The notes below the pieces were generated by a model, which saw only the letters and a list, made by a program, of their open reading frames with translations, was not told the DNA's origin and made no database searches. This document shows positions 8,739 through 57,825 of a DNA stretch of 64,000 bases, in pieces (the stretch's first letter is position 1; every line of letters starts with the position of its first letter). The DNA lies in NCBI GenBank assembly GCA_965242925.1, contig CBDEUM010000029.1, positions 256,001 through 320,000 on the forward strand. The letters are read 5' to 3'. The stretch comes from Roseibacillus sp. GTDB taxonomy: Bacteria; Verrucomicrobiota; Verrucomicrobiia; Verrucomicrobiales; Akkermansiaceae. The translations under genes and the position numbers were made by a program.

Positions 8739-8807
8739 AGGGAGGATCCGGCAAAATCGCGGTTGCGGGAATTGAAATGAGGCCTAGGTTCTCGGGCAGT
8801 TGCCCCG

Positions 8808-10368: not shown

Positions 10369-11216
10369 AGCTCTTCCTGATCCAGTTACGCAGCGAGCTC
10401 AAGAAGCTCTTTGCGCGCCGTCGGACCTATATCGGATACGGCGCCTTCCTTGTTCTCGAGCTGGTTATCCTCTGGGTCTTTCATCTCGACGGGCCCCGCG
10501 AGGAGATAGCGAAGATTCTCTCGGACACCGGACTTGAGGTGGAGCACTACTATTCCGCACTCACCGTCACCTATTGGATGATCGGGTTCAGCATGGCAAT
10601 GCTCGGGGCGATCTACCTTGCGCTGGTTTCCGGAGATATAGTAGCCAAGGAAAGTGAGGACGGCAACCTGCGGATGGTGCTCGCCCGTCCCATCAGCCGA
10701 CTTCGGATCCTCACCCTCAAGTACCTTGCGGTCCTGATCTACACAGTGACCTTTGTCTGGTTTGTCGGGGTGTCTGGCTACCTCATGTCGTCCATCGCCC
10801 TGGGATGGGACGGCGGTCTTTTCGTATGGAATTACGATCTCAAGGTGTTCTCGTTTTTTCCCGCCGCGACTGTCGGGATCGGGCGACTCTCCCTGTCCCT
10901 GGTTTTTCTCAGCCTGAGCATGTTCACGCTGTCCTCGATTGGATTCGCCTTTTCCTGCCTCAGGATCAAGCCGGCGTCGGCAACCATCCTCGCCCTCAGT
11001 GTCCTCTTCGTTGACTCGGTCCTGCAGATGCTGCCCTTCATGGCTCCCTACCGGGAGCATCTGCTCACCTTCCGCATGAGCAACTGGATCTACGTCCTTG
11101 AGAACACGGTTTCCTGGGCCAAGCTGGCTGAGAATTATACCTTCCTGGTCGGGTTGGATCTCACTCTCTTTGTACTCGGCTGGATGGCATTCAAGGTGAG
11201 GGATTTCAAGACCTAG
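10365..11216 (+). CDS. ABC-2-type permease
   Basis: About six TM segments, GDIVAKE.EDG.LRM.LARPISR motif; GTGA overlap with the ATPase stop. Confidence 0.88.
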   Translation: MKLFLIQLRSELKKLFARRRTYIGYGAFLVLELVILWVFHLDGPREEIAKILSDTGLEVEHYYSALTVTYWMIGFSMAMLGAIYLALVSGDIVAKESEDGNLRMVLARPISRLRILTLKYLAVLIYTVTFVWFVGVSGYLMSSIALGWDGGLFVWNYDLKVFSFFPAATVGIGRLSLSLVFLSLSMFTLSSIGFAFSCLRIKPASATILALSVLFVDSVLQMLPFMAPYREHLLTFRMSNWIYVLENTVSWAKLAENYTFLVGLDLTLFVLGWMAFKVRDFKT

Positions 11217-38126: not shown

Positions 38127-40718
38127 TCAGTCTACAAAGATGAATTCGTTCAGGCAGATCACGGTCTGGCAGAAGTCTGCGATCGCCAGTTTCATGGCCT
38201 GCGCATCGCTGCCGTAGGATGCGGCCTGTCCCTGGATGAAGGCAACCATCTGCTGCTGTTCGCCGGGAGCCGGGGGGCGGGCCAGGGCATGAGTGTAGGC
38301 TCTCCGGACCACCTCGTCGACAGGGACCTTGTCGTCGGAATGAATACGCTGGGCAAATTTCTCGGCCATTTCCCGGACATAGGGAGAGTTCATCATGGCC
38401 AGGGCCTGGGGTGGAACCGTGGTGGAGATTCGTTTGCCGATGCTCTGCATGGCGTCCGGGGCATCAAAGAGTTGCAGGATGGGAATCAGGTTACTGCGCT
38501 TCACGGTAAGATAGATGCTGCGCCGGGCATGGCGCTGGTCCACAGTGCCCTTGTCGAACATGCGTTTGTCGAGGGTTCCGCTGACGGCAAGGAGCGAGTC
38601 TCGGATCACTTCCGCCTCCAGGCGGGTGGCTCCCCGCCGCCACCAGAGCCTGTTCTCCGGATCGACCTTGCGGGCGAGTTCGTTGGAGCCTCCCTGCTGG
38701 CGATAGACGGAACTCATCATGATCATCTTGTGGATGGGCTTGAGTTGCCAGCGGTGGCGGATGAGTTCCGCGGCGAGGTGGTCCAGCAGTCCGGGATGGG
38801 TGGGAGCTGCACCCTGGGTCCCAAAGTCGCTGGGCGTGTTCACGATGCCGCGTCCCATGTGGTGCTGCCAGAGGCGGTTCACGATTACGCGCGCAAGGAG
38901 GTGACCGGCTCCCCGCTGTTCGTCGGTGATCCAGTGGGCCAGGGCGACGCGGGGAGGACGATTCTCCGTGGTGGTGAGCCAGTGAGCCTCGTCCGCCCCC
39001 TCTGCCTGCAGGACGCGAAGAAAGGCCGGGGTGGCGAGCTCCTGTTTGGCATTGGAGTTTCCGCGCTCGAGGAAGTAGACCTTGCGGGTGTCACCCCCGA
39101 AGTTGTAGGTCGCTCCTCCCGTGCGGGCTGCATAGATGTTCACCAGGGCCGGCTTGGGAGTTTTCTTGGTGTGCTCCTCGACGGCGAGGTTCAGTTTGCC
39201 CCAGTCCGGGTCCCGCGGGGCGAACCACTTGAGGAGTTCCTGTTTCTGCTTCTCGTTGCGCTTGTCCGGGGACAGGGCGAGGATGTCCTCGATGTTCTTG
39301 GGGACCTCCGGATTGGTGCTGAAGTAGAAGCCGGAACCGCCTCCACCATTGACGATTTTGATCAGCAACTTGTTGGTGCCGGCCTTGAGCTGCAGGGTGA
39401 TCCGGTCCTGGTCCTTGGCCACTCCGCCCTGGACTTCCTTGGCCAGCACGGACTGGCCGTTGAGCCAGACCTTGATGGCATCGTCCCGGCCCAGGGAGAT
39501 GGGGAGAGGGCGCGCCTTGGGGACCTCGATGGTGCGGAAGAGATAGTTCGCGCTGTTGTCTCCCTGGAGGGTGTTGTGGATTACCCCGTCCTTCCATTCC
39601 GGCCTGGCGAGCCACTTCCTGTCACCGTAGGCCTTGGCGAGGTCGATTTCCTTCTCCGGGGGGAAAGCCTCGTTGTAGGCCTTCTTGAAGTCCGCAGCCC
39701 CGAAGGGACCGATATGATGCCAAGGGCTGAGGTTCTCGAGGGAAGCCGGTTTCTCCCGCTTGGCGACCCACTCGGTCAGGCGGGTTGGGAGCACATCCTG
39801 CTCAAAACGGGCCCGGGTTTCGACGAGGGGTTTGTGGGTAGCCTCAAAGCGTTCCTTGTCGGCTTTCGTCTTAGCCGGATCAGGATCGTGAGCATGGTTC
39901 TGGAAGCCGGTTTCCGCGAAGCAGGAGACAAGGCGGTAGTAATCCCTGATTGGAACGGGGTCGTATTTGTGGTCGTGGCAGCGGGCGCATCCGATCGTCA
40001 GGCCGAGCATGGAGGTTCCCATGGTATGGACAATATCGTCCAGTTGCTCGTAGCGACTGCGTTCCCGCTCCTTCTGTGTCTGCTGGGAGGTGAAGGGGCC
40101 AGCCGCCAGGAACCCGGTGGCGGCCTGGGCCATATAGTTTTCCGGTTCTATCTGATCGCCCGCGATCTGCAGTTGGACGAAGCGATCGTAGGGCATGTCT
40201 TCGTTCAGCGCCTTGATGACGAAGTCACGATAGTGATAGGCATCGCCACGGTCCTTGTCGAAGGCGTAGCCATTGCTCTCGGCGAAGCGGGCGAGGTCCA
40301 GCCAGTGGCGGGCCCACCGCTCTCCGTAGTGGGGGCTGGCGAGGAGCCTGTCGATGAGCTTCTCATAGGCCTCCGGAGATTCATTGCCGAGGTAGGCCTC
40401 AATGGCGGCCGGTTCCGGGGGGAGTCCCCAGAGACCAAACATGGCCCGTCGGAAGAGCGTACGCCGGGAGGCTTCCGGGTTCGGGGACAGATTCTGTTTC
40501 TCGAGAGGGGCAAGAATGAAGCGGTCAAGGTGGGTGCGCACCCAGGACTCGTTCTTCACGTCGGGTGGTTTGATGGTCCTGAGGGACTGAAAGGACCAGA
40601 ACTTGCGGCCCTTCTCAAGGTCGATCATCCGGGGAGGGGAAGGGGCTTCCTCGGCGATTGCGATCCCGCCGAGGGCGGTGCAAACCATGGCGGACAGGGC
40701 AATGGGAACACGGCTCAT
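38127..40718 (-). CDS. DUF1549/DUF1553 (PSCyt2/PSD1) protein with an inserted beta-sandwich
   Basis: YGERWARHWLDLARFAES, CARCHDHKYDP, VNRLWQHHMGRG, PTHPGLLD, PQAL.MMNS. Confidence 0.92.
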   Translation of the reverse strand: MSRVPIALSAMVCTALGGIAIAEEAPSPPRMIDLEKGRKFWSFQSLRTIKPPDVKNESWVRTHLDRFILAPLEKQNLSPNPEASRRTLFRRAMFGLWGLPPEPAAIEAYLGNESPEAYEKLIDRLLASPHYGERWARHWLDLARFAESNGYAFDKDRGDAYHYRDFVIKALNEDMPYDRFVQLQIAGDQIEPENYMAQAATGFLAAGPFTSQQTQKERERSRYEQLDDIVHTMGTSMLGLTIGCARCHDHKYDPVPIRDYYRLVSCFAETGFQNHAHDPDPAKTKADKERFEATHKPLVETRARFEQDVLPTRLTEWVAKREKPASLENLSPWHHIGPFGAADFKKAYNEAFPPEKEIDLAKAYGDRKWLARPEWKDGVIHNTLQGDNSANYLFRTIEVPKARPLPISLGRDDAIKVWLNGQSVLAKEVQGGVAKDQDRITLQLKAGTNKLLIKIVNGGGGSGFYFSTNPEVPKNIEDILALSPDKRNEKQKQELLKWFAPRDPDWGKLNLAVEEHTKKTPKPALVNIYAARTGGATYNFGGDTRKVYFLERGNSNAKQELATPAFLRVLQAEGADEAHWLTTTENRPPRVALAHWITDEQRGAGHLLARVIVNRLWQHHMGRGIVNTPSDFGTQGAAPTHPGLLDHLAAELIRHRWQLKPIHKMIMMSSVYRQQGGSNELARKVDPENRLWWRRGATRLEAEVIRDSLLAVSGTLDKRMFDKGTVDQRHARRSIYLTVKRSNLIPILQLFDAPDAMQSIGKRISTTVPPQALAMMNSPYVREMAEKFAQRIHSDDKVPVDEVVRRAYTHALARPPAPGEQQQMVAFIQGQAASYGSDAQAMKLAIADFCQTVICLNEFIFVD

Positions 40719-40849
40719 ATGAGACCCCGATGATAGGCCCTCCGCGCCATTGGGCAAACGGGATCTTCCCGCCCGATGGGAGGACCTCAGTGGGATGGGA
40801 CCGGTATCCCTGGCGGACCGAGCTTCGGCGAGTCTCACCGGTCGGTTTC

Positions 40850-42259
40850 TCAGACCCCGAGCCCTCTGATTGGAAGAGCCTCGGAGATATACTGAGTGAG
40901 CTGTTCGGGGAGTTTGTCCGCCTCGCGGAGTTTTCCCATGTCAAAGAGCGTCCGCATGATCGTTCCCATCAGGTTCCGGGGGCCAAACCCTTCGGTGGCT
41001 GGTTCCGCGGCGATGTTGTCCGACTCTCCGATGACCTGTCCCATGTGGAGTCCTCCCCCGGCGAGGAGGAGGCTGGTGAGCTTCCCATAGTGGTCGCGCC
41101 CGCCATTTTTGCTGAGTTTCGGGGTTCTTCCCATCTCGCTGGTGACCACGAGGAGGACATCATCGCTCAGGCCCCGCTGAGCGAGATCCTCAATGAAGGC
41201 GCTCACCGCGTGATCGACCTGGCCGCCCATGGGGTAGAGCCCCTCCATGTTCTTGGGGCTGTTGTTGTTGGCGTGGTAGTCCCACCCGCAGTCGGAAACC
41301 GTGACAAATCCCGCGCCCTGCTCCACGAGACGGCGGGCCATGAGCATCTGCAGGCCGAGAAGATTACTGGCCCGGCGCATGTCGTGCCAGCGCTGGAGCT
41401 TCTTCTGGTCGAAAAGGGGACGGGTGTCGTAGCGGGCCACCGTGCGGGGATCCTCCCCGGACAGGTCAAAGGCCTTGTCGATGCCGGCGGTGAGGACGTC
41501 GAAGGCCTGTTGCTGGACCCGGTCGGCTCCCTCGATCACCCCTGATTCGTCGGCCTGGCGGCGCAGGCTGTCGAGCTTGGAGAGGAGCGTCCGGCGATCG
41601 GTGAAGCGGTCCGGGTCGAGGGTTAGTTGCATGTCGTCGCGCAGGGGGCCCCCACCCGAGGGATTGAAGGCGCCATTCGGAGCCCCGAGTTTTCCGGGAG
41701 CGGCCACGGTGGGAAGGGCCTTGGTCTCGAAATTGCTCTCGAGCTTCAGGGTAGGATCGACGGCTTCGGGAAGAATGAGGGTGTTGTTGGGAATCGAGGC
41801 CGGTCCGAGGGGGCCTGCCACCTTGGAGTAGATCGCTCCCATCGAGGCCTCAAGGGGGTTGCCGGCGGTGGCGACCGATCCGTAGGTGTGCTGGCCGTTG
41901 TTGGACCCGTAGGAGCGGACCACGGAGAACTTGTCCGCCATCGCGGCCAGTTTGGGAAAGGTTGAGCCGAAGGTGATCCCGGGGAGCTTGGTCTTGATCT
42001 CCCCGGTGATGCTGCGCACCTCCCGCGGAGCGGTCATCTTCGGATCGAAGAATTCAATATGGGGTGCCCCCCCGTGGAGGAAGAGCAGGACCACCGATTT
42101 GCCCCGGAGCACCCCGGGGGTCCCGGCCGCGGCGGCCTTGGTGGCGAGGAGACCCGGAAGCCCCAGTCCGGCCAGGCCGAGGGAACCGACCTGCAGGAAG
42201 TCCCGCCGGGAATAGCCCGCGCAGGTCCGGTTCAGGGAGGGGTCGGAGATACGGATCAT
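40850..42259 (-). CDS. DUF1501 domain protein, Tat-exported
   Basis: SRRDFLQVG, GG..H.E.FDPK, MARRLVEQG, WDYH, EMGRTPK, GGRDH. Confidence 0.92.
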   Translation of the reverse strand: MIRISDPSLNRTCAGYSRRDFLQVGSLGLAGLGLPGLLATKAAAAGTPGVLRGKSVVLLFLHGGAPHIEFFDPKMTAPREVRSITGEIKTKLPGITFGSTFPKLAAMADKFSVVRSYGSNNGQHTYGSVATAGNPLEASMGAIYSKVAGPLGPASIPNNTLILPEAVDPTLKLESNFETKALPTVAAPGKLGAPNGAFNPSGGGPLRDDMQLTLDPDRFTDRRTLLSKLDSLRRQADESGVIEGADRVQQQAFDVLTAGIDKAFDLSGEDPRTVARYDTRPLFDQKKLQRWHDMRRASNLLGLQMLMARRLVEQGAGFVTVSDCGWDYHANNNSPKNMEGLYPMGGQVDHAVSAFIEDLAQRGLSDDVLLVVTSEMGRTPKLSKNGGRDHYGKLTSLLLAGGGLHMGQVIGESDNIAAEPATEGFGPRNLMGTIMRTLFDMGKLREADKLPEQLTQYISEALPIRGLGV

Positions 42260-43897: not shown

Positions 43898-46800
43898 TTA
43901 CGGGGCGGGGCTTGGGCGACCCGTGACGTTCAGCCGGAGGAATTGTGTGTTCTGAACGCTGATCGGAGCGGTGGAACGCCAGGTTTCCAGGACGGTGCCG
44001 TCATTTTGGTTGTGGCGTGACACAAACGCGACTGCAGTTCCCCGGAGCCAGGTAACGAGATCCTCGGATTGCTCGACGTGGCAGATGACGTCGTCCGCGG
44101 CGAGGTTGCGTTCGAAGGTCATAGTGAGATAGCGATCCGTCCCACCGATCCCACCGATCCCACCGATCCCAGTATCGAAGGAGCCGATGCCGGGCGTCGG
44201 GAGTGGCGTGGTGATCGAAGTTCCCGCCAGGGCGTGTTCGAGAAAGTCGCTGAGTCCATCGTTATCGCTATCGGCGACGGGATCGCCTGCGAAGTCGATG
44301 GCGTCGGTGCTACCGGGATTTCCACCGACCGCCACGCTGGGCCGCCAACTAAATGGATCGTTGTGATCCGGGTTGCTACGGGGGGCGATGAGCACCAGAC
44401 TGAAGCCGACCCCGTCGGCGCTCTCGGGCCACGGAAACTTGTCGTCATAAGTGAAAGACTGAACCACGGTGGTCCCATCCCCACCGAGGATCGTAATCGT
44501 CTCGCCTTCGTTGGCCAGATTTCCAGCATACTCTCCATGCGGCGCAAAGCCGTAGCGTTCTGTGAAGGCGGCGGCGTTTTTCGCGAGGACGAGACGCCCC
44601 TGCGGAAGCAGCGTGGTCCCGAGCGGAAAACCGAAATCGATCCCAGCCGAGAAGGAAAGCAGGGAGAGATCGATCGGACCATTGCTGATGTTCATCAATT
44701 CGAGAAACTCGTAGCCCTTTCGTTCCTGACCAACGAGGGCCTCGGCCGGAGTCTGCGGAGGGAGCGGATGGTGGTTGATCTCGCTGACCACGAGGTTGCT
44801 CGCATCGGCGGGAGTTCCCACAATAAGGGGAGCCTCCACCAAAGCGCTCCAAGTAGTTCCATCCAGGACCCGCGCCCGCAGCAGCGCCGAGGTCGAGGGC
44901 CTGAAGGGAGCGGTGTAGAGTTGCGCAGTCGCGGAGGTTCCGGTGGCACTGGTAGCATTGGATACCAGCTGTGGCAGAACCAACATGTCGTTGCTTGCCG
45001 CGGAGTCGTTCATGGCGTGAATCGCCAGCACATTGTTTCCGAGCTGCAGCCCCCCTTTGTGAGCGGAAATGTCGAAGGGCTGGAAGGCGGTGGCCTGCCG
45101 GTCGATTCGGTCGGAGGTCGCCTCCGATTGCCAGTCCAGTACGCCCGGCTCGTTCTCAGCGGCGACTCGCGTCCCGTTCAAGTAGGCCACAAATCCCGAA
45201 TCGTACTTCATGTTCAGCGTAAGGCTGTCGATGTGGTCGAGGGTGGCCTGGTTGGCGATGGTGAAGGGGATTCGCACATAGACCGAGGCGGTGGCATCCA
45301 TCATCTCGGGGACGTAGTGATTAATGAGATCCTCAAAGGCATCCGGAACTTGTTCGAAGCCCACTCCAGTGCTGCCTGACTTCCACACGGCCAGGTTGAA
45401 CGGATCGGCCAGTCCGGTCCACTGCGCGGGGATGAGGGCTGAACCGCCGTTCGCCACCGAGGGGACGAGGGCGCGGACATCTGGAGCAAATTCAGAGAGC
45501 AGCACCACCTCCTCGTTGGAGGTGTTCGACCTGCGCGGGTCCGTGTCGTCGGTCGTGAAATAGATGGCGCCGGAAGCCGGAGCCGTAAACCCAACCAGCG
45601 TATCGCCGACGGTCCCCCCGTGCCGAGGCACACCGTCGACGCGAATCTCGGGTGGAGCGAGATCGGGATAGAGGCCAAGCGCACGGAGCTGATTCAAAAC
45701 AACTCCCGTGCGCTGGGGAAAGTAGGACCGCAACAGGCGGTCGCGCTCGGGGATCCAGTGGTCGTCGCGCGTGTACAAATGATAGGGTCCCCGCAGGATC
45801 GAGTTGACGTCACGCCGGTAGTCGCCCCAGCGCGCCGACTCCGCAACCACCGCAAGCTCAATCTCAGCGGCCAGCGCCGCGTAGCGCGCCGCGGCGACCT
45901 CGGGTAGCAGCACGCCGTCGTTGAAGAAGTGCCACTGAATGCGGTCTGCAACCATGAGGCGGAACTCTTCGTTGCCGCGCAGGCGGTGGAACAGATGAGC
46001 GGGCGAAGTCGGGTGGTTAGCTCCCGTGACGTTGATGCCGACAGTTTCCATCGAGGCCTCGGCGTCCCAGGTGAAGAACCGATACTTGCCGGGAGGTTCG
46101 CGGCGGCGGGCGGCGGTCCAATTGCTGCCCGGCCAATCGTTGTTCCCGATCCAGAAGTTGATCAACATGTAGTCGATCAGGTTGGTCAGATCGAGCGCCT
46201 CGCTAATCGCCTGGAGCTCTTCCGGTGAGGAGACGCCGCTGTTTACCAAGTCGACCAGGGCGTTGTAGGAGTTCGCGCTGCCGTCTTGGACTTCGATCCG
46301 CCCGACATCGAGATTGACGACATCCCAGTCCTCCTCGTTGCCGCCGAGGATCTCCGCGAGCCAAGATGCGCGGATTCGCTCGATTGGGTTGTAAAGGCCC
46401 CAATAGTGACCGTTGATGTAGAGGTGGGCAAAGTTGCTCCTGACCGAAGTCTGCCCCATCAGGCCGAAGGTGTCGTGGACGAACTTGTCGATGACGTACT
46501 GAGCCTGCGGCCGTGGCGCGCCGACGCCCCAGGCGCCGTCGTGGATCCATGCGTCGAGGTATCCGGAGCGCAGACTGAAGGTGTCGTAGCGGTTGGTCGA
46601 CGAATCATCGAACATCTGGAACTCCAATTTGGCCGCGCCGTAAGCCTCTTTGAACAACAGGCGCAGGGAGTGCTTCGGCGACTTGTCGGGCTGTCGGCTG
46701 GCCCCGCCCTGGATGCGGATACCAGCGTCGACCTGGAACTCCCGTCCGCCCGCAGAGTTGAAATACTCGACCGACACCGGCCGCTCCCAATCCGGTCCAC

Positions 46801-48730
46801 GGTTCGCGTCGCTGCAGCAGTTACCGGGATTCGCGTAAATGCCGAAACTCGGGTCGAACAAGTCGCCCGCGTCCAGCACCAGGGAAATGGTCGGGATTGA
46901 CCGCAGGGCGTCACTCATGATGCCACTGAAGCGCGGATCTCTGGTGACCTCTGGGTCCATGCCGTAGTCCGCCCGGCCGCCGCCCACCCACGACGCGGGC
47001 AACGTAGGGGGCGTGTTGTCCTGGACGACGATATCCTCGATGAAGAAGTAGCTCTGCGTGTCGACGTTGGTCGGGCTCAGCCCTGTCTTGAATGCCATTG
47101 CGCGCAGGGTGGTTGTCGAGCTGATCTGGATCGGATCGGTGTAGCGGTTTCCATGGGTGTCGGACGGTGCGCTGCCATCGACCGTGAAGCGTACTCGCGC
47201 TCCGGGGGTGGCAGTCGTGATCTCCACCTGGATGGGCGTGTCGTAAAAGCCACCGTCGACGCTGAAGGTGGTGTCGCCGACGGATCCCTCAAAGCCGGGT
47301 TCGTTTGGGAGACCGGGAGTGGGCGGATCAAAGAAACCCCGCTCCAGCGCGACTCCGAAGAGTCCGTAAGAGACGTCGGGTTTCTGTTCCGGAAAGGCCG
47401 GCGAATACTCGCACGTGATACTCACACCGTCCGGCCTCACGAGCGCGAGATACTCGCCATCGCCATCCAGCCGGAAGTTGGTATGCAGCTGGCGTCCGGC
47501 CACCGCCCGGTCCTTGCCTGAGGCGAAGACCAGGACGTAGTCACCGCCATCCAGCAAGTGAGGCGGGAACCGCCACTTGGTGAGAAAGTTCGGGTCGTCA
47601 GTGAGATGCCAGCCGTCCAAGTCGATCTCACTACTGGCGGTATTGCAGATTTCGATCCAATCCGTATTCTCGCCATCTTCGTCGAGCAAGGAGTCATCGT
47701 TGATGGCAAGAAACTCGGTGATGGTAAGAGTCTCTCCTGCGATTACGAAGGTAGTGGCCGTAGCGGTCCCCTCCGCGTTGGTGGCGATCAGGGTGTAGGT
47801 GGTGGTGACGAGCGGGTTAACTACCACGCTGGACTGTCCGGTCACGTCACCGACATCGGGGGTGACGGCGGTCGAGGGAATGCCGCCCAGCGGATCGACG
47901 ATGGTCCAGGAAAGCGTCACGGGCGTCCCGGCCATGATGCTCTGCGAACTCGCCGTGAACGAGATGATTTCGGGAATTGCGGGAAGACCGGCATTCTGCA
48001 CCACGATGTTGTCGACCGAGACCGTGCCCCAGCCGCGGGTGGTGCCGTCCACAACGCGCAAGTATACTCCACGTTGTCCGGTGATTCCAGCCGCCTGCAG
48101 TTCCGGGTTCGTCCAGGCGCGGTGGTGCAGAAAGCCGCCTCCCAGGCTCTCCGAAATAATGACATCTCCAGTTTCGGCATCATGCAGGAACAGTCCGTTG
48201 GGTGGCGCACCCCCGCCAAGGTCCATCGTGAAGGAACTGGTCTCGTCGATGAGGAAGGTGTCACTGATGAACTCCCCCATGTCGCCGTCTCCGTGTTTGA
48301 AGTGCGCGGCGCCGTTGAAACCCCAGTCCGCTCGAAGGAGCCACTCGTTCAGTGGGTGGGCACCGGGCGTGTCGGTGATGAGGCTCTCATCATCGATGGC
48401 GTTGTAGCGGACCGGGTTGCTGGGGACTCCTTCCTCGAACCGATCAAAGCTGTCACCACCCCCGGGGGTGGTGAGATGAAACTTGAGGGCTCCGCTCGTA
48501 TCGTAGAGCCGATCCTGCACCGGGTCGTTTTCCACCGCCACCCGACCCTCGAAGTCCCAGATCAACGTCACGCCTTGGCCCGTGGTCGTCATCGCGACCG
48601 CGAAGGCGACAAGCAGCCTCACATGATGGAGCAACAGACACACAGCTGATAGAGGGGGTATGCCGCACTGCGGGTCGAGCCACGGCATCGTTTGGGCCTT
48701 TATATAAGGCGCGTTCCGCGGCCAGAGCAA
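43898..48730 (-). CDS. Large secreted CotH kinase-family protein with lamin-tail and Ig/Fn3-like domains
   Basis: LTD motifs ITEF..DWIEI.N and VSEINHHP..EFLEL.N; CotH motifs KHSLRL, LYING.YWGLY..ER, N.DWP, WDAE; true start may be GTG 48622. Confidence 0.88.
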   Translation of the reverse strand: MLWPRNAPYIKAQTMPWLDPQCGIPPLSAVCLLLHHVRLLVAFAVAMTTTGQGVTLIWDFEGRVAVENDPVQDRLYDTSGALKFHLTTPGGGDSFDRFEEGVPSNPVRYNAIDDESLITDTPGAHPLNEWLLRADWGFNGAAHFKHGDGDMGEFISDTFLIDETSSFTMDLGGGAPPNGLFLHDAETGDVIISESLGGGFLHHRAWTNPELQAAGITGQRGVYLRVVDGTTRGWGTVSVDNIVVQNAGLPAIPEIISFTASSQSIMAGTPVTLSWTIVDPLGGIPSTAVTPDVGDVTGQSSVVVNPLVTTTYTLIATNAEGTATATTFVIAGETLTITEFLAINDDSLLDEDGENTDWIEICNTASSEIDLDGWHLTDDPNFLTKWRFPPHLLDGGDYVLVFASGKDRAVAGRQLHTNFRLDGDGEYLALVRPDGVSITCEYSPAFPEQKPDVSYGLFGVALERGFFDPPTPGLPNEPGFEGSVGDTTFSVDGGFYDTPIQVEITTATPGARVRFTVDGSAPSDTHGNRYTDPIQISSTTTLRAMAFKTGLSPTNVDTQSYFFIEDIVVQDNTPPTLPASWVGGGRADYGMDPEVTRDPRFSGIMSDALRSIPTISLVLDAGDLFDPSFGIYANPGNCCSDANRGPDWERPVSVEYFNSAGGREFQVDAGIRIQGGASRQPDKSPKHSLRLLFKEAYGAAKLEFQMFDDSSTNRYDTFSLRSGYLDAWIHDGAWGVGAPRPQAQYVIDKFVHDTFGLMGQTSVRSNFAHLYINGHYWGLYNPIERIRASWLAEILGGNEEDWDVVNLDVGRIEVQDGSANSYNALVDLVNSGVSSPEELQAISEALDLTNLIDYMLINFWIGNNDWPGSNWTAARRREPPGKYRFFTWDAEASMETVGINVTGANHPTSPAHLFHRLRGNEEFRLMVADRIQWHFFNDGVLLPEVAAARYAALAAEIELAVVAESARWGDYRRDVNSILRGPYHLYTRDDHWIPERDRLLRSYFPQRTGVVLNQLRALGLYPDLAPPEIRVDGVPRHGGTVGDTLVGFTAPASGAIYFTTDDTDPRRSNTSNEEVVLLSEFAPDVRALVPSVANGGSALIPAQWTGLADPFNLAVWKSGSTGVGFEQVPDAFEDLINHYVPEMMDATASVYVRIPFTIANQATLDHIDSLTLNMKYDSGFVAYLNGTRVAAENEPGVLDWQSEATSDRIDRQATAFQPFDISAHKGGLQLGNNVLAIHAMNDSAASNDMLVLPQLVSNATSATGTSATAQLYTAPFRPSTSALLRARVLDGTTWSALVEAPLIVGTPADASNLVVSEINHHPLPPQTPAEALVGQERKGYEFLELMNISNGPIDLSLLSFSAGIDFGFPLGTTLLPQGRLVLAKNAAAFTERYGFAPHGEYAGNLANEGETITILGGDGTTVVQSFTYDDKFPWPESADGVGFSLVLIAPRSNPDHNDPFSWRPSVAVGGNPGSTDAIDFAGDPVADSDNDGLSDFLEHALAGTSITTPLPTPGIGSFDTGIGGIGGIGGTDRYLTMTFERNLAADDVICHVEQSEDLVTWLRGTAVAFVSRHNQNDGTVLETWRSTAPISVQNTQFLRLNVTGRPSPAP

Positions 48731-48891: not shown

Positions 48892-49578
48892 ATGAGTCAC
48901 ACGAACCTCAACACTCGCCGCAGCTTTCGCAATCTTGCCGGAACCGCCGCCCTTACCTTCTGCCTAGGCCTCGCGCCACAGGCCTTCGGAGCCAACACCA
49001 TCATCGACATCGTCGATGGGGTGGTCACCCCCGGCCCCCAGCGTACCGCTAATGGCAGCGAGCACTTCCTCGCCTGGGACGGCGATGTAAACACAAGGAC
49101 CTTCTCCACCAATTCCGGGACCCAGACCGTGCCCCAGCACACACGCCTGGATTTCGAGGGGGGGGGGCATTTGCTGGGTCTCGTTCGCATCAACGACCAA
49201 GCGGGAAATGACAACAACGGCCGCATGCAGCAGATCAGCCTCTCGTTTACGACCGACACCGACTCCGACCTGAACGCCCGAAATTACACGGCGGTCACCA
49301 ACCTCATCTTGACCCAGTTCACCGGCGACGATCCCGTCGGCCCGAACCTCAACATCTCCGGCAACACCATTGAGCACCTCGACACCGCCCACGACGGATT
49401 CTATTCCGTTACCTTCGATCCCGTTCCCAATGCCACCGGAATCGAGTTCGAATGGGAGAACGAAGGCCCCTTCAAACACTGGACCATCCGCGAACTCGAA
49501 GCTTACGCCGTCCCCGAGCCCTCCACCGCGCTGCTCGGCCTCCTGGGCCTGACCCTTCTGGCCCGTCGGCGTCGCTAG
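48892..49578 (+). CDS. PEP-CTERM surface protein with one copy of an unrecognised ~160-aa domain
   Basis: Signal peptide; C-terminal VPEPSTALLGLLGLTLLARRRR. Confidence 0.92.
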   Translation: MSHTNLNTRRSFRNLAGTAALTFCLGLAPQAFGANTIIDIVDGVVTPGPQRTANGSEHFLAWDGDVNTRTFSTNSGTQTVPQHTRLDFEGGGHLLGLVRINDQAGNDNNGRMQQISLSFTTDTDSDLNARNYTAVTNLILTQFTGDDPVGPNLNISGNTIEHLDTAHDGFYSVTFDPVPNATGIEFEWENEGPFKHWTIRELEAYAVPEPSTALLGLLGLTLLARRRR

Positions 49579-49699
49579 ACGACGGCGTCTCCGGACCCCG
49601 GCAAGCCCTGATCGTTCGTGGGATCAGGGCTCGCCGTCTGGAGCCCGCCTTCCTTGGATTCATGTGCGTCCATACTCTCAAAATAAGAAAGAGGATCCC

Positions 49700-51952
49700 A
49701 TGAATAGCAGCACTCCTTTGCAAAGGATCAGATCCACCGGCCTCCTCGTCACCCTCGCGGGCAGCCTCTGCCTGGGTGCCTCCCCCCGCGCCGCCTCCGA
49801 CACTCTGATCGACATCGTCGATGGCGTAGTCATCCCCGGACCCCAGCGCACCGCCCCTGGTAGCGAGCACTTCCTCGCCTGGGATGGTGACGTGAATACG
49901 AGGACCTTCTCTACCAACTCCGGGACTCAGACCGCACCCCAGCGCACCCTGCTCGACCTGGAACCAGGTGGGCACCTCCTGTCGCGCATTCGTATCAACG
50001 ATGTCGCCGGCAACGACAACAACGGACGCATGCAGCAAATCACCGTCCGGTTGACCACAGACATCGACGCCGACCTGAGCACCCGCACCTATACCGATGT
50101 CACAAACTTGATGGTCCTCTCCCTGCCCGACGACGCCCCCACCGCTCCCAATGTCAATGTCACCGGCGCCACCGTCGAACACCTCGACACTCTCCACGAC
50201 GGTTTCTACTCCCTCACCTTCGACCCGGTCCCCGACGTAACCGGCATCGAGTTCGAGTGGGCGAACGAAGGTTCCTTCAAGCACTGGACCATCCGCGAGA
50301 TCGAAGCCTACGCCGCTTCCACTGAGGATCCGGATCTTCTGGTCGCTTCAGTAGTCAACCTCGAGCTCCCGGGCGCCGACACGATCCTGATCCGGCTCCG
50401 CAATGGGGGACAGAGCCAGAATCTCAACATTTCCAACGTCGAGATCACCGGGGGCGCCCAGCAGGGCTCCTTCTCCAACGTCCAGTTCCCCGGTCAGTTG
50501 ACGCCTGGTGGGGTCGGCACGGTCGAGGTTGATTTTGATCCTGGAAACACTCTCGGCGACTTCGAGGGGATCCTTACCATTTCCAGCGACGATCCATCCG
50601 ATCCCGAGAAAACCGTCACCATCAACGTGACCCGGCCCGAACCGCCTATCCCCACAGGTGACACCCTTATCGATATTGTTGACGGCCTGGTCGACCCGGG
50701 CCCGGGCCGCACCTCGAATAACCCCCCGGAAAACGCCTACGACGGTGACGTCAGTACCCACACCTTCATGACCGAGTCCGGTACCCAGACCGCGCCCCAG
50801 CACACTTACCTGGATCTCGAGGATGGGCTTCACGACCTCTCGCGCATCCGTATCAACGACGTGGCCGGCAACGACAACAACGGCCGCATGCTCCGCATCA
50901 CCATTCGAGTCACCACTGACACCGACCCTGACCTCGCATCCCGAACCTATCACGACGTCACCAATTTGGCCGTGCAGCAATTCGATGGAGACGCTGACCC
51001 TCCGCCCAACGTCATCGTCACCGGGAACTCCATTGAGCACCTCGACACCGCCCACGACGGATTCTATTCCGTTACCTTCGATCCCGTTCCCAATGCCACC
51101 GGAATCGAGTTCGAATGGGAGAACGACGGCCCCTTCAAACACTGGACCATCCGTGAGATCGAGCCCTATTCCGGCGCGCCTGCCGGCGTCAGGATCACCG
51201 ACATTTCCTACAATGCCTTTGCGGACAGCATCAGCATCAGCTGGGAGAGCAAGGACGGCAATCTCTACAATCTCCGGAGCGAGACTGATCTCTCGAATTC
51301 CCCCACCGCCGATTGGCCCATCGTGGGGGCCAACCAGGATATCGCCGCCACGCCACCCGAGAATACCATCACCTTCGCCCGCCCCGGCGATCTCACGCGC
51401 TTCTATGTCGTCGAGTGTTTCCCCGCTCCCCCAGTGGCCGTCTTCTCGGAGAACTTCGACGACGCCGCGGCTCTGCCGCCCGGCTGGACCACCGGCATCA
51501 ACCCCACTGACACCGGATCGACCGCTTGGGAGTTCGGGACCCCCTCCGGCGTGGGCCCGGGTGCCGCCAACAGCCCTCCGAACTGCGCCGCTACCAACCT
51601 GGGCGGCGCCTACGGAGCGGACAGCGACATCTATCTGCGCACGCCGGCGATCGATCTGACCTCCGCCAGCGGAGCCACTCTGAACTTCGCCCAGTGGGTG
51701 GATATCGAAGCCAGGTTCGACTCCGGACAAATTCGCCTCCTCGATGTCGATGCTGCTGAAGCCGAGATCGCAGTGCTCGATATGACCATCGACGGAGAAG
51801 ATCCGGCCGACTGGGATTCTTACAGCAAGAAGCTCCCCACCCCTGCTCTCGGCAAGAATGTTCGCTTCGAATTTCGCCTTAATACCGACGACTTCGATCC
51901 CGACCCCTTCGCGGGATGGTACCTGGACAACGTCATCGTCACCGTCCCGTGA
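49700..51952 (+). CDS. Secreted modular protein: two copies of the unrecognised domain, an ASH/choice-of-anchor-D-like Ig domain and a MAM/adhesin-like C-terminal domain
   Basis: Signal peptide, AAGAGGA RBS; two DTLIDIVDG..KHWTIREIE.Y units; LTISSDDP; FSENFD..GWYLDNV. Confidence 0.85.
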   Translation: MNSSTPLQRIRSTGLLVTLAGSLCLGASPRAASDTLIDIVDGVVIPGPQRTAPGSEHFLAWDGDVNTRTFSTNSGTQTAPQRTLLDLEPGGHLLSRIRINDVAGNDNNGRMQQITVRLTTDIDADLSTRTYTDVTNLMVLSLPDDAPTAPNVNVTGATVEHLDTLHDGFYSLTFDPVPDVTGIEFEWANEGSFKHWTIREIEAYAASTEDPDLLVASVVNLELPGADTILIRLRNGGQSQNLNISNVEITGGAQQGSFSNVQFPGQLTPGGVGTVEVDFDPGNTLGDFEGILTISSDDPSDPEKTVTINVTRPEPPIPTGDTLIDIVDGLVDPGPGRTSNNPPENAYDGDVSTHTFMTESGTQTAPQHTYLDLEDGLHDLSRIRINDVAGNDNNGRMLRITIRVTTDTDPDLASRTYHDVTNLAVQQFDGDADPPPNVIVTGNSIEHLDTAHDGFYSVTFDPVPNATGIEFEWENDGPFKHWTIREIEPYSGAPAGVRITDISYNAFADSISISWESKDGNLYNLRSETDLSNSPTADWPIVGANQDIAATPPENTITFARPGDLTRFYVVECFPAPPVAVFSENFDDAAALPPGWTTGINPTDTGSTAWEFGTPSGVGPGAANSPPNCAATNLGGAYGADSDIYLRTPAIDLTSASGATLNFAQWVDIEARFDSGQIRLLDVDAAEAEIAVLDMTIDGEDPADWDSYSKKLPTPALGKNVRFEFRLNTDDFDPDPFAGWYLDNVIVTVP

Positions 51953-52113: not shown

Positions 52114-55100
52114 ATGACCCGAACTGCTCTTCCTCTAACAACCGCGGTGTTCCTTTCGCTCTGCCCTTCCCCAGCGTGGGCTACCGACGGCAATCGCCTC
52201 GTGCACCTCGATGAACCGAACAATCCGTGGCAGTTCCACCGCGAGTCGGCCAAGCTCATCACGCCACAGTGGATCGGCGAAAAGGGTGTGCACGGGGTGG
52301 CCGTGCTCGCCATCGACGACATGTCGGGCGACGGTCTGCACTTCCGCAACTATCTGAGTCCGATCATCGATCGGCTCAAGCTCATCGACGGTCGCGGTCC
52401 GGTCAGCATCACCTGCAATCGTCCGGATCCCACTCATCCCAACATGCAGTGGCTGCTCGGCCAGGGCGTCTCGCTGGAGACCCACACCCTGAGTCATCCC
52501 TGTCCGCTCCTGCATCACCTCGACTTCGCACGGGCCGCCACCGACTACCACCGCTGCGTCGACCTCCTGGCCGCCATCCCCAACAACCGCTCGGTGGGAT
52601 TCCGGTTCCCCTGCATGGACGGCCAGAACACGCCGAGCCCTCGCGCCTACGCGGAGATCCTCAACGGCGTGAGCGAAATGGGGAATTTCATGTCGTCAAG
52701 CACCAGCGTGGGCATCGTCTTCACTCCGACGGACCCGGAACTGCCGCGCTCGATCTTCGAGGGCGACCCCGCCGGCGGGAGGCGCTTCTCCAAGTACCTG
52801 ATGACGGGCTTCGTCAACTACATCGAAGATTACCCGTATCCCTTCACGGTCGGAAACCTGATCTGGGAAGTTCCCTTTGTCTACCCCAACGACTACACCG
52901 GCCAGGCCCTGAACGGAGCCCAGAACCCGGTCATGATTGCCGATTTCAAGGCGGCGGTGGATGCCACGGTCGCGAAGCAAGGCGCGGTTTCGCTTTGCTT
53001 CCACGCCGGCGGATGGATGCGCAATGACCAGATGGTCGAAATCGTTGATTACGCCGACCGGACTCACGGCAAGAAGGTGAAGTTCCTCACCATGCGGGAG
53101 ATGGACGAACGCATGGTCGAGAACATGCTGGCTGGCCATTCCCTCCGCAACGCGAAGGGCGGTGACAATGGCGTGCGCATCTTTGATATCGACGGCAACG
53201 GCTACATGGATGTCGTCATCGGCAACGACAGGACCAGGCTGAGCCGCATCTGGAATCCGGAGAAGGAATCCTGGCAGGAGTCCCCCTTCCCGACTCTCGT
53301 CACTCCCGCCCTACGCTTCGGGATCCTCGACAAAAGCGGAAGGGCCGCTGCGATCGAAACAGACGGGCGCGGCGTAAACCGTGCCTGGCGCTTCGACGGC
53401 AAGGCCTGGGTGGCCGACCAGTCACTGGTGGCGGGACTGGCCGGGGTGACCACACACCGCAAGGGCGCCGACGGGGGCGTGCGCCTGCGCGATGTCGATG
53501 GCGACGGAATCTGTGAATTGATCGTCGGGACGCCCACACAGTCCGCGGTTTATCGCCTCGGGAAGAAAGGCTGGCAGAAGCTTCCCTTCGGACTCCCGGA
53601 GGGATCCTCGCTTGTAACCCAGTCCGGAGGCGACGCGGGACTCCGCTTTGCGGATATCGATGACGATGGGCAGCAGGATATCATCTTTTCGAACGCCGAG
53701 CGCTACGGGACCTGGATGCTCGAGTCGCTCAAGAGCGGCTGGTCACGGAAGGGCCTCCATGGCAAGCGCCAGGGCGACGGAGTGGGAGAACAACACACCC
53801 GCGTGCGCACGGCCCTGGCTCCCATCGTGCGCAAGGACGGCACCAACAACGGCGCGTGGATCAAGCGCGGACATCTCTACTGGCAGAGCGAAGATACGGG
53901 CGCGATCATGCCGCACCACATCGACCAGCGCAGCTTTGGCGACCTGTTGGGCGACCAGGTGAACCAACCCCGGACTGCGAACTCGTCCTTGCGCGCGATG
54001 CAGGCACGTTCCGGCTTCCGGGTGGAATTAGTGGCAGCCGAACCGCTCGTCATGGATCCGGTCGACGTGGCGTGGGGCCCGGACGGTCGTCTGTGGGTGG
54101 CCGAGATGGCTGATTATCCAATGGGCCTCGATCACAAGGGCCAGCCCGGGGGCCGAATTGTCGCTCTTACCGATACCGACGGAGATGGGCGCTACGACAA
54201 GCGCACTCTCTTCGCGGACGGTCTCGAGACCGCCAACACCGTGCTTCCCTGGCGCGATGGTGTCCTGGCGATCGCACCGCCCAACATTTGGTTGCTGCGC
54301 GACACCACTGGCGATGGCAAATCGAATCTCAGGGTGCTTCTTTACGAAGGATTTGGCCGGGGAAACGAGCAGCATCGAGGGAATGGATTGGTCTGGGGAC
54401 TCGATGGCTGGCTCTACGTCTCCAACGGGGACAGCGGCGGGACGATTCGATCCATCAAGACCGGTAAAAGACTCAATCTCGGTGGATTCGATCTGCGCAT
54501 CCGGCCGGACACCGGTGAGTTTGAACCCGCTACTGGAGTCACCCAGCACGGCCGCAACCGCGACGACTGGGGAAACTGGGTGGGAGGAAACAATTCGAAC
54601 GGCTGGCAAATCGCACTGGAAGACCACGAAGTCCGCCGCAACCCGAAGGTCGATCAACCAAATTCCCGCCATCCAATAAACGGGGTGATCCCCCTCTATC
54701 CCATCAGCCGCGTGCTCAGTCACTACAGCGGGTATCGAGCCCCGCCGGCGGGATCCTCAGGCAGCCTCACTTCAGCCTGTGGATATACCTTCTATCGCGA
54801 CAGTTTGTTCGACGGTCACATCGCTCCCTCGGTCTACTTCTCCTGTCCCGTGCACAACTGCGTGCATCGGGAGGAGATCACCTGGAACGGAGTCCTTATG
54901 GAAACCGAGCGCGCGAGCGACGAGGCACGGAGCGAGTTTCTCCGCAGTTCCGATTCCTGGTTCCGTCCCACCGCCATTCGCACCGGACCGGACGGCGCGA
55001 TGTACGTGGCCGATATGTACCGGCTTGTTATCGAGCACCCGGAGTGGATCGACGACAAACTCGAGCAGGAAATGATTGCCGACGGACGCCTGCGTGCCGG

Positions 55101-57825
55101 ACACGACCGGGGACGGATCTACAAGATCTTTCCGAGCGGGGCGAAGCTCCACAAGCGGGCAAACCTTGCCTCGCTCAACCCGGCTGAGCTCGGTGCCGCG
55201 CTGGACTCCTCGAACGGCTGGCAGCGTGACACCGCCCACATGATGTTGACCTGGGTCCAAGAGTCCGAGCAGAAGAAGGCAATTCCGGGGCTCGTCAGTG
55301 TGCTGCGAAGCAAGCATGCGGCCGCCCGGGCCCAGGCCTTGAGCGCGCTCGCAGATCTTGGCGCGCTTTCCGCGGATGCGCTGAAGATCGGTCTCGACGA
55401 TTCACACCCCGGCGTGCGGCGCAATGCGCTGCGCGTAGGCGCTCACCTCTTCAACGACCATCCGACCCTGGGTCAGCGCGCGGTTGCCCTGCTCAACGAC
55501 GAAGATGCCCACGTGCAACAGCAGGCTGCCTATGCGTTGGGCGCCTGGACGCACAAGGAGGCTGGGAGGGCCCTTGGACGTTTCCTCGTGAAGAACGCCG
55601 GTCGTCCCTACCTCCGTGCCGCGGCCCTCACCTCGGCGGGGGCACTCCCGCATGAGGTCCTGCTCGCCGTTCTCGGGTCTGAGCGGACGCCGGTGACCTC
55701 CGCCCTCAGCGCGGAGCTGATGGGGATGCTCGGAGCCGACGCCAAAAAACTCGTGCCGCCCGTGCTGACGCGCATCGCGAGCAAACCGGACAACGGCAAA
55801 CACTACCAAGCGTGGGAGTTTCATGCCGCGACGCGCCTCATGGAAGCCATGGGCGACGACGAAGCTGCTCGCGCGCTCGTGCCCGCCATGCTGGTTAAAG
55901 CGCGCGCTACGGTGATAGATGGGAAGAGGGACTTGGAGACCCGCCTCTCCGCGGTTCCGTTCCTGGAACGGGCTTCCCCCAACGCTGATGTCCGTCTGCT
56001 CACCTCTCTTCTGAAGCTGACGACGCCGATCGAATTGCAGGTCGCGGCGGTCAAGTCGCTCCTGCGGCATGAGAATACCGGCGCGGCAAAGAATCTCTTG
56101 GCCGGTTGGTCCGCACACGGGCCGGCGGTCCGCGGCGCCATTATCGATGCTCTCCTGGCCCGGCCGGTGCTCACCGGCACGCTCCTGGATGCGATTGACG
56201 GAAACCGCGAATTGGGAGTTTCCCTCGACACCAGCCGTCGACAGTTGCTCCTCCGGCACTCCAACGAGTCCATCCGTGTGCGAGCCACCAAGCTGCTCGG
56301 CGGCGCCACCAATGCGAACCGCGCGGCCGTGCTCAATAAGTACACTCCGGTGCTGACCAAGGCTGGAGACCGCGAGAAGGGCCGGGCGCTCTTTGGAACG
56401 CACTGTGCACTCTGTCACCGGCTCAACGGCGTCGGCAAAGTGGTCGGTCCGAACCTGGCTGCGCTGAGCAATCGCGCGCCGCTCACGTTCCTCACCGCCA
56501 TCCTGGATCCCAACCAGGCCATCGAGGCGACCTGGATGCTCTTTGTCGCCAAGACCAAGGACGGGCGCACTCTCGCCGGGGCGGTGGCGGAGGAAACGAG
56601 TTCCGCCGTCACGCTCGTGGGTGTCGACGGAGCCCGCACCCAAATCCCGCGGGACCAGCTTGTGTCGCTGGAGTCCACCGGCCGCTCGCTCATGCCGGAG
56701 GGACTCGAAGGAGCAATCACACTCGAGCAAATGGCCGACCTGCTCGCCTACCTCAAGATGGCGGGGAGGCCGATGTCCCAGGTAGAGGTCAAGGGCAATA
56801 CTCTCGAACACCTCGACGCCAAGCACGACGGCTTCTACTCGATCTTGTTCGATCCCGTGGCCGGAGCGACGGGAATCGAGTTGGAATGGGCCAACGAGGG
56901 CCCCCACAAGCACTGGACGATTCGCGAGATCGAAGCCTACGCCAACTTCGAGACGAAGGTCGATATCGTGGCTGGCACCGTTGTTCCGGGACCGACGCGG
57001 ACCGGGGCCAACGGGCTGGAGAAGGCCTTCGACGGCAAGGTCGAAACCCGGACCTACACCACTGCATCCTACACGAATGTCGTACCCCAGCGGACGCTTC
57101 TCAAGCTCGCGCCGGGTGCCCACGTGCTCGACCGCATCCGCATCAACCATGTGGGGGGCAACGACAGGAACGGGCGGCTCCAGCAGATCACCGTCCGCGT
57201 CACCACCGATGCCAATCCCGATCTGGCCGCCCGCAAGTATGCCAATGTCGCCAACCTCTCGGTTCAGATCTTTGGTGAAGCGGGGGCCGAAGAAGCGGCG
57301 AAGCCCGAGGAGAAGCCGAAGCCCAAAGGAAAACCGAAACCCTTCGGTGGCAAGCCGCACAAGATCCCGGGGTTGATCGAGGCCGAGCATTATGACGAGG
57401 GGCCGCCCACGGTCGCCTACCGGGACAACGACGCGAATAACCAGGGCGCGCCCTATCGCAAGAACACACAGGTCGATATCGAGAAACGTGACGACGCCTC
57501 CAACGGACACGGGATCGGCTGGACCGGGGCAGGGGAGTGGCTGAACTACACCGTCGAGGTCGCTGCGACCGGAACCTACGCGATCGAGATGCCCGTCGCC
57601 TCCAGCAAGCAGGGGGGGCTCTTCCACCTTGAGATTGAAGGGAAGGACCTCACCGGCCCCATCCGCATCCCCGACACCGGGGGATGGACCACCCTCAAGA
57701 CGATCTCGCACAAGGGCGTGGAACTGAAGAAGGGCGTGCACGTCATCCGGGTCGTGATGGACAAGAACGGTGCCAACGGCGGGATCGGAGACATCGACTA
57801 CTTCAAGTTCAAGGCCGTGAAGTAG
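52114..57825 (+). CDS. 1903-aa PVC-type fusion: deacetylase-like + FG-GAP + beta-propeller dehydrogenase + HEAT + cytochrome c + permuted unrecognised domain + CBM6-like
   Basis: AIDD/HTLSH/FRFP; DIDGNG and DVDGDG; ELVAAEP..DPVD..WGPDGRLWVAEM; CALCH..GPNL..SLMPEG; IEAEHYD..IGW...GEWLNYTV. Confidence 0.88.
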   Translation: MTRTALPLTTAVFLSLCPSPAWATDGNRLVHLDEPNNPWQFHRESAKLITPQWIGEKGVHGVAVLAIDDMSGDGLHFRNYLSPIIDRLKLIDGRGPVSITCNRPDPTHPNMQWLLGQGVSLETHTLSHPCPLLHHLDFARAATDYHRCVDLLAAIPNNRSVGFRFPCMDGQNTPSPRAYAEILNGVSEMGNFMSSSTSVGIVFTPTDPELPRSIFEGDPAGGRRFSKYLMTGFVNYIEDYPYPFTVGNLIWEVPFVYPNDYTGQALNGAQNPVMIADFKAAVDATVAKQGAVSLCFHAGGWMRNDQMVEIVDYADRTHGKKVKFLTMREMDERMVENMLAGHSLRNAKGGDNGVRIFDIDGNGYMDVVIGNDRTRLSRIWNPEKESWQESPFPTLVTPALRFGILDKSGRAAAIETDGRGVNRAWRFDGKAWVADQSLVAGLAGVTTHRKGADGGVRLRDVDGDGICELIVGTPTQSAVYRLGKKGWQKLPFGLPEGSSLVTQSGGDAGLRFADIDDDGQQDIIFSNAERYGTWMLESLKSGWSRKGLHGKRQGDGVGEQHTRVRTALAPIVRKDGTNNGAWIKRGHLYWQSEDTGAIMPHHIDQRSFGDLLGDQVNQPRTANSSLRAMQARSGFRVELVAAEPLVMDPVDVAWGPDGRLWVAEMADYPMGLDHKGQPGGRIVALTDTDGDGRYDKRTLFADGLETANTVLPWRDGVLAIAPPNIWLLRDTTGDGKSNLRVLLYEGFGRGNEQHRGNGLVWGLDGWLYVSNGDSGGTIRSIKTGKRLNLGGFDLRIRPDTGEFEPATGVTQHGRNRDDWGNWVGGNNSNGWQIALEDHEVRRNPKVDQPNSRHPINGVIPLYPISRVLSHYSGYRAPPAGSSGSLTSACGYTFYRDSLFDGHIAPSVYFSCPVHNCVHREEITWNGVLMETERASDEARSEFLRSSDSWFRPTAIRTGPDGAMYVADMYRLVIEHPEWIDDKLEQEMIADGRLRAGHDRGRIYKIFPSGAKLHKRANLASLNPAELGAALDSSNGWQRDTAHMMLTWVQESEQKKAIPGLVSVLRSKHAAARAQALSALADLGALSADALKIGLDDSHPGVRRNALRVGAHLFNDHPTLGQRAVALLNDEDAHVQQQAAYALGAWTHKEAGRALGRFLVKNAGRPYLRAAALTSAGALPHEVLLAVLGSERTPVTSALSAELMGMLGADAKKLVPPVLTRIASKPDNGKHYQAWEFHAATRLMEAMGDDEAARALVPAMLVKARATVIDGKRDLETRLSAVPFLERASPNADVRLLTSLLKLTTPIELQVAAVKSLLRHENTGAAKNLLAGWSAHGPAVRGAIIDALLARPVLTGTLLDAIDGNRELGVSLDTSRRQLLLRHSNESIRVRATKLLGGATNANRAAVLNKYTPVLTKAGDREKGRALFGTHCALCHRLNGVGKVVGPNLAALSNRAPLTFLTAILDPNQAIEATWMLFVAKTKDGRTLAGAVAEETSSAVTLVGVDGARTQIPRDQLVSLESTGRSLMPEGLEGAITLEQMADLLAYLKMAGRPMSQVEVKGNTLEHLDAKHDGFYSILFDPVAGATGIELEWANEGPHKHWTIREIEAYANFETKVDIVAGTVVPGPTRTGANGLEKAFDGKVETRTYTTASYTNVVPQRTLLKLAPGAHVLDRIRINHVGGNDRNGRLQQITVRVTTDANPDLAARKYANVANLSVQIFGEAGAEEAAKPEEKPKPKGKPKPFGGKPHKIPGLIEAEHYDEGPPTVAYRDNDANNQGAPYRKNTQVDIEKRDDASNGHGIGWTGAGEWLNYTVEVAATGTYAIEMPVASSKQGGLFHLEIEGKDLTGPIRIPDTGGWTTLKTISHKGVELKKGVHVIRVVMDKNGANGGIGDIDYFKFKAVK

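Follow-up and report, generated by a model that had tools for sequence, protein, structure and literature searches.

A stretch of 64,000 nucleotides from a metagenome-assembled genome (MAG) of Roseibacillus sp. (assembly GCA_965242925.1, contig CBDEUM010000029.1, positions 256,001 to 320,000; here called the window) encodes an exported multidomain protein of 1,903 amino acids (aa). We analyzed 165 residues of this protein (aa 1557 to 1721, encoded at 56782-57276 on the plus strand), which a preliminary description had taken for a natural circular permutation of a domain that occurs in unpermuted form nearby. The protein consists, in this order, of a signal peptide, 340 aa without assignment, FG-GAP repeats, a DUF7133/PVC-type heme-binding region with a CxxCH motif, HEAT repeats, a cytochrome c domain, the permuted module, a Lys/Pro linker, and a CBM6 domain. 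The unpermuted, canonical form is encoded 3 to 8 kb upstream in two genes, one for a 228-aa protein with a single copy and one for a 762-aa protein with two copies. The carriers of the window's canonical copies are surface proteins (Table 1).

Order of segments in the 165-residue module

BLASTP comparison with the 228-aa neighbor yielded two matches without overlap and in swapped order. Residues 1 to 54 of the module correspond to residues 153 to 206 of the neighbor (39/54 identical, 72%; E = 2e-29), and residues 58 to 164 correspond to residues 36 to 143 (57/109 identical, 52%; E = 3e-32). This swapped-order match is far beyond chance, and the order swap proposed earlier is thereby confirmed. 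Only three residues (NFE) remain uncovered between the two matches, whereas a linker of six residues (ANFETK) had been described; the shorter value holds, as "TK" is already part of the alignment with the canonical start. Taken together, ..PMSQVEVKGNT in the upstream flank of the module and ..SVQIFGE at its end represent the two sides of one canonical inter-strand loop. The matching loop in P0040, a 928-aa relative, reads ..LFQGDALPLPNVTVSGNT, within the longer stretch ..ELFQGDALPLPNVTVSGNT... With one canonical loop accounted for by its two ends, the module comprises exactly one domain equivalent with nothing lost or doubled, in agreement with the preliminary description. Two homologous segments, swapped and free of overlap, sum to one domain, as in a circular permutant.

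A tblastn search of the whole window with the canonical domain revealed three full canonical copies (48991-49506, 49796-50311, and 50660-51169), so that the permutant indeed lies beside unpermuted relatives. The same search returned the module as two swapped pieces (56779-56940 and 56953-57258), and every further match in the window had an E value of at least 0.078. Across the whole assembly (4.58 Mb, 42 contigs, 89.9% complete), the copies in the window were the only ones found.

Table 1. Features of the locus and contigs spanning the permuted module (positions in the window)
Feature	Position	Strand	Evidence or remarks
228-aa protein: signal peptide, one canonical domain (aa 36-206, nt 48997-49509), PEP-CTERM anchor	48892..49578	+	Translation; PF07589, 4.6e-05
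762-aa protein: two canonical copies (nt 49802-50314 and 50663-51172), choice-of-anchor D Ig (immunoglobulin)-like domain between the copies, choice-of-anchor J domain after them	49664..51952	+	Translation, family matches, part mapping
1,903-aa exported multidomain protein	52114..57825	+	Open reading frame list, translation, Pfam and NCBIfam
Heme-binding cytochrome c domain (aa 1418-1548), directly 5' of the permuted module	56365..56757	+	TIGR02603, 1.1e-35; PF00034, 1.4e-08
Segment 1 (aa 1557-1610)	56782..56943	+	Homologous to the canonical C-terminal third (last five strands, ending ..HWTIREIEAYA)
Join NFE (3 residues), old C terminus to old N terminus	56944..56952	+	Gap between the BLASTP matches
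Segment 2 (aa 1614-1721)	56953..57276	+	Homologous to the canonical N-terminal two thirds; motifs VDIV.. DGxxxT .. RIRIN .. GNDxNGR .. TTD .. SVQIFG
Glu/Lys/Pro-rich linker (aa 1722-1780)	57277..57453	+	Translation; no family match
C-terminal CBM6 (aa 1781-1900)	57454..57813	+	PF03422, 2.4e-19
Contig X4, record 8	56300-57800
Contig X6, record 11	56300-57755
Contig X15, record 1	56300-57587

Some orthologues of the 1,903-aa protein do not carry the CBM6 domain and end right after the permuted module. The first 340 residues (52114-53133) match no Pfam or NCBIfam model, yet are 82 to 94% identical in orthologues from two families and, on this comparison, would constitute a conserved domain without family assignment. 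Directly upstream of the canonical-domain genes lies a gene on the minus strand (43898-48730) for a 1,610-aa protein with CotH kinase, Lamin-tail, and chitobiase/hexosaminidase C-terminal domains. Further upstream, a PSCyt2/PSD1 protein (38127-40838, minus strand) adjoins a DUF1501 protein (40850-42259, minus strand), which we take to be the usual planctomycete-type gene pair.

Predicted folds of the canonical and permuted forms

The gathering threshold of PF00754 (F5_F8_type_C) is reached by neither form. No Pfam or NCBIfam model matched the permutant's 165 residues (P0001), including PF00754 at E <= 1. On the second canonical copy of the 762-aa protein (P0004), this model gave a sub-threshold match (E = 0.0018; 18.8 bits at a cut-off of 28.2) that places profile positions 9 to 74 on residues 350 to 420. 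Precomputed PF00754 matches are on record for many PSCyt2/PSD1 proteins carrying the canonical form. Since the threshold is not reached, we assign the domain at the fold or superfamily level only.

An AlphaFold model of the canonical copy in the 228-aa protein, built from an alignment of 15 sequences, had a predicted local distance difference test score (pLDDT) of 86.6 and a predicted template modeling score (pTM) of 0.85. It matched solved CBM32, F5/8 type C, and APC10-type jelly rolls over its full length, with 104 Foldseek matches at E <= 1e-3. The CBM32 module of BT3015C (7blg_A) was aligned by VIA with Z = 14.7 over 136/142 residues at 21% identity, and 100 chains reached Z >= 8. At the sequence level, positions 5 to 92 of the canonical profile correspond to residues 24 to 107 of 7blg_A (E = 0.013). 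Based on these Foldseek, VIA, and profile matches, the canonical form is a divergent CBM32/F5-8 type C (discoidin-like) jelly-roll lectin fold. The fold is shared with CBM32 modules such as that of BT3015C and those of C. perfringens, as are a DGxxxT motif near the start and an E-x-E-aromatic last strand. The beta-sandwich of the canonical copy is colinear with the solved members, and N-then-C is the order of the CBM32/discoidin fold. In comparison, the permutant places the last five strands first.

For the permutant, a model based on an alignment of 22 permuted modules was a compact all-beta domain with a pLDDT of 81.6 and a pTM of 0.82, a value higher than expected for two independently placed pieces. 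Its strands are those of the canonical model in cyclic rotation, with identical DSSP states at 51/54 homologous positions in the C-part (94%) and 94/106 in the N-part (89%). The old last strand (residues 46 to 54) leads through a three-residue turn into the old first strand (58 to 60 and 62 to 68). As a prediction, the assumption that the permuted segment folds is thus upheld: one compact beta-domain contains the canonical elements in rotated order. Of the 24 residues that are at least 90% conserved in 15 canonical domains, 23 are the same in P0001, and 18 of these are also at least 90% conserved across the 22 permutants.

The permuted model itself gave no Foldseek match at E <= 1e-3. The Z score for 7blg_A fell from 14.7 with the canonical to 5.0 with the permuted model, and those for CBM32 chains fell from 12 to 15 to about 5. 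Colinear aligners lose the match because the chain order is permuted, as expected of a permutation, and the Foldseek result is silent on fold novelty. Language-model features, which are independent of order, grouped the module with clusters of the F5/8 type C family (score, 0.97). Positions 55 to 142 of the permuted profile weakly matched residues 22 to 106 of 7blg_A (E = 0.21), an alignment that puts the start of the solved CBM32 in the middle of the permuted module. The best structural match of the permuted model, and the only solved chain with Z >= 8, was 6eon_A 635-779 (Z = 8.7; 129 residues aligned). This region is the C-terminal beta-sandwich of the galactanase BT0290 and may be a solved domain with permuted strand order.

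In factor V/VIII C domains, the two ends are bridged by a disulfide. The published discoidin topology has the sheets b1-b2-b7-b4 and b5-b6-b3-b8 (PMC3320712), and from strand parity in this topology we infer that both canonical termini would lie at the same end of the barrel, which would make a short join plausible. Altogether, the models strongly indicate that the permutant has the same three-dimensional fold as the canonical form. The old C-terminal strand would be joined to the old N-terminal strand by the three-residue turn, and the chain would be opened in the loop between two strands. The same beta-sandwich could then form from the rotated chain, with the new termini again being neighbors.

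Conservation, spread, and origin

Residues 1540 to 1740 were searched against 5.8 billion clustered proteins. All 35 homologues found are ordered C-then-N, and their mapped parts lie 2 to 6 residues apart. Eighteen of them are orthologous giants (PVC-heme; 1,099 to 1,908 aa), and the other 17 are DUF1588/PSD-family proteins of about 1,050 aa that carry the module at about aa 45 to 212, immediately behind the signal peptide. Ten further permuted proteins came from a second search. The DNA was found in seawater and marine metagenomes, and two homologues are recorded as proteins of Verrucomicrobiales and Akkermansiaceae MAGs.

We further sampled species-representative genomes with a single query. 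Full-length permuted matches were present in 4/15 other genomes of the same genus and in 9/118 genomes of a second family of the same order, and this query gave no match of either form in 135 genomes from 19 other genera of the same family. One genome of the second family (G194) encodes both the giant and the DUF1588-type carrier. In PSCyt2/PSD1 (DUF1549/DUF1553) proteins of about 950 to 1,006 aa (P0111-P0137), a canonical-order domain lies in the middle of the protein, at about aa 412 to 635, and the canonical domain occurs in this setting also in G194 (G194:C16:319892-320413). Three PVC-type architectures use the module, two of them in permuted form. Another locus (L009; G073:C48:12289-12405) has a 58-aa open frame whose similarity is confined to the final 39 residues of the module (77% identity) and which resembles an isolated fragment.

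As the window is part of a MAG and conserved repeats may be joined wrongly, the swap might reflect an assembly artefact; it might also be a decaying, functionless remnant of a broken tandem. The preliminary description had suggested confirming the junction with spanning reads. Logan contigs from three other studies (assemblies, not raw reads; Table 1) span the module and both flanks, bridging all junctions without indel or joint; the run X8 was left out, as its short contigs covered 11/30 bins. The reading frame is open across all 1,903 aa. Pairwise comparison of 14 loci gave a median ratio of nonsynonymous to synonymous substitution rates (dN/dS) of 0.13 for the module (range, about 0.07 to 0.34; 29/91 pairs with usable dS), showing that the permuted module is under purifying selection. 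Given the 35/35 homologues of the same order, the independent contigs, and the dN/dS values, misassembly and relic were both rejected. That the permutant is functional, as described earlier, we infer from this conservation.

A canonical two-copy gene adjoins the permuted giant in 2/5 loci, namely in the window and in G194, and none was found within the stretches fetched for G371, G043, and G140. In G194 (L041; G194:C11), the two-copy canonical gene encodes 576 aa (4261-5988, minus strand) and is divergent from the permuted giant (6062-11197, plus strand). Such proximity could allow the C-then-N pieces to associate in trans, either with a second copy or with a neighboring canonical domain, and so give a strand-swapped oligomer instead of a monomeric permuted domain. 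The C-N junction of a tandem array links two different domains, and the join by itself does not force an intramolecular fold. We consider pairing in trans improbable, as the monomer model is compact with the short turn joining the old terminal strands, the module occurs in two unrelated carrier proteins, and it is present in genomes in which this query found no canonical copy (G043, G091, and G140, one match each).

The origin of the permutation was addressed with an exhaustive HMMER search, which found 44 relatives at E <= 1e-3 among 1.84 billion representatives. Part mapping revealed the canonical N-C order in most of them, and the distant relatives (28 to 37% identity) are all arrays of N-C units. 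Two relatives contain the direct tandem canonical copies implied by a permutation through duplication. In P0040, two copies abut, with a C-part at 337 to 389, seven residues, and an N-part at 397 to 498; this junction, ..REIEAYAKLDPGLKVDITDG, resembles the permutant junction, ..REIEAYANFETKVDIVAG. P0084 has five copies, and its last two C-to-N gaps measure 10 and 15 residues.

Maximum-likelihood trees of the N-part were calculated for 60 rows, of which 38 were permuted, and again for a second sampling (22/60 permuted) in which the degenerate first P0040 copy and the oddly composed P0049 were dropped and the permutants were thinned. In both, the permuted copies form a single clade nested among canonical ones (Shimodaira-Hasegawa-like approximate likelihood ratio test [SH-aLRT], 95 and then 93). 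Sister to this clade is the N-part from the second copy of the P0040 tandem pair (support 83, then 88), and the DUF1588-type N-parts nest inside the copies of the giants (support 93). Ranked by mean identity to the permutants, P0040_N3 (60.8%; next, 59.9%) and P0040_C2 (74.2%; next, 72.2%) come first among the canonical halves, and it is these two that abut at the tandem junction.

These trees also bear on the polarity of the change. The family is small, and in the C-part tree, rooted on a long branch, some permuted copies are basal, as might be seen if C-then-N were ancestral and N-then-C derived. This is very improbable considering that N-then-C is colinear with the solved CBM32/discoidin structures, that the distant relatives are N-C arrays throughout, and that the permuted N-parts are nested within the canonical ones.

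We regard it as rather probable that the module originated once, when a single repeat length was captured out of register from a tandem array. The C-part of copy i and the N-part of copy i+1 in a directly tandem canonical array would have supplied this repeat length, which would have been built into a PVC-type heme-binding dehydrogenase-like protein. Later, the module may have moved to the N terminus of DUF1588/PSD-family proteins. Tandem duplication followed by trimming had been named before as a possible route. The direct tandems and the position of the second P0040 N-part as sister to all permutants speak for it; the C-part tree is silent on origin, and half-trimmed intermediates were not among the sequences mapped.

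Alternatively, the permutation could be real and have come about by fission and fusion, or by cut-and-paste recombination between separate canonical genes, the tandems being unrelated side branches. Most two-copy proteins have their copies 112 to 120 residues apart with an Ig-like domain in between, and the C-part trees lend no support to P0040_C2 as sister; together with the missing intermediates, this would fit such a route. We nevertheless consider it unlikely. Direct tandems exist in two proteins, the second tandem member's N-part is sister to all permutants in two samplings, and both closest halves flank the same tandem junction. In addition, the module ends sum to exactly one canonical loop, as expected of an out-of-register repeat length.

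Overall, we put at roughly 0.8 the probability that this 165-residue module is truly a heritable circular permutant of a divergent CBM32/F5-8 type C lectin domain with the structure, origin, and role proposed here. Several points weigh against this reading. On the side of structure, PF00754 gave no match to the permutant and a sub-threshold one to the canonical copy, the sequence link between the permuted profile and 7blg_A is weak, and 6eon_A 635-779 is a beta-sandwich that was not identified here as CBM32; the claim of the same three-dimensional fold is drawn from homology, secondary structure, and pTM. Regarding origin, the identity margins in favor of P0040 are small for both halves. The C-part trees (54 columns) are unresolved: the permutants are not one clade and at least four changes are needed, with no strongly supported branch that would require a second origin. 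Half-trimmed forms (N-C-N or C-N-C) did not occur in the 141 mapped protein ids, which represent the matches listed in length-limited searches. Finally, ligand binding is putative.

Relation to known permutations and putative role

That proteins can evolve by circular permutation is well known. In 2010, Montanier et al. reportedly described a natural circular permutation linking the jelly-roll families CBM36 and CBM60, a precedent for jelly rolls of carbohydrate-binding modules tolerating permutation. CBM36 and CBM60 are two separate CAZy families, whereas here both forms are about 52 to 72% identical, lie in one genome within 8 kb, and have surviving tandems. Our search of the literature, thin on subscription journals, found no report of a permuted CBM32, discoidin, or galactose-binding-like domain. 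To our knowledge, most natural permuted pairs are old and without surviving intermediates.

A further parallel is the saposin/swaposin pair, for which Bliven and Prlic (2012; PMC3320104) describe permutation by duplication and a subsequent out-of-register cut. Both cases have the permuted domain in an unrelated carrier and the canonical domain in tandem arrays. They differ in that saposin/swaposin is alpha-helical and eukaryotic, whereas here a bacterial PVC-type heme-binding protein serves as the carrier, with the module also found in a second carrier family.

The most likely role of the module, judged from its fold and neighbors, is glycan recognition, and the CBM6 domain in the same protein provides a context of carbohydrate binding. 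In the window's protein, the module beside CBM6 might tether an exported redox protein to polysaccharide. Whether this is a young CBM32-type permutation, with the tandem precursor state surviving in relatives and the module then becoming mobile and now residing in two unrelated PVC-type families, appears to us evenly poised.

The case is moderately interesting rather than surprising. It stands out because both forms are highly identical within the same genome, the tandem state survives, and the permuted module has been put to use in two architectures. If the reading is true, this would be one of few cases in which every stage, from duplication through out-of-register excision to spread, is open to reconstruction and bench testing, and a tolerated cut site would be identified in a widely used glycan-binding scaffold. 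The module reveals a site at which new termini are tolerated in a CBM32-like sandwich, and this may be useful for engineered glycan sensors. Since canonical, tandem, and permuted forms coexist at high identity in one small marine Verrucomicrobiales-type family, the route is experimentally testable. Furthermore, as the module escapes the Pfam and NCBIfam profile libraries, widespread giant PVC-type heme proteins carry a probable glycan-binding module that is unannotated, and a permuted profile would mend this missing annotation.

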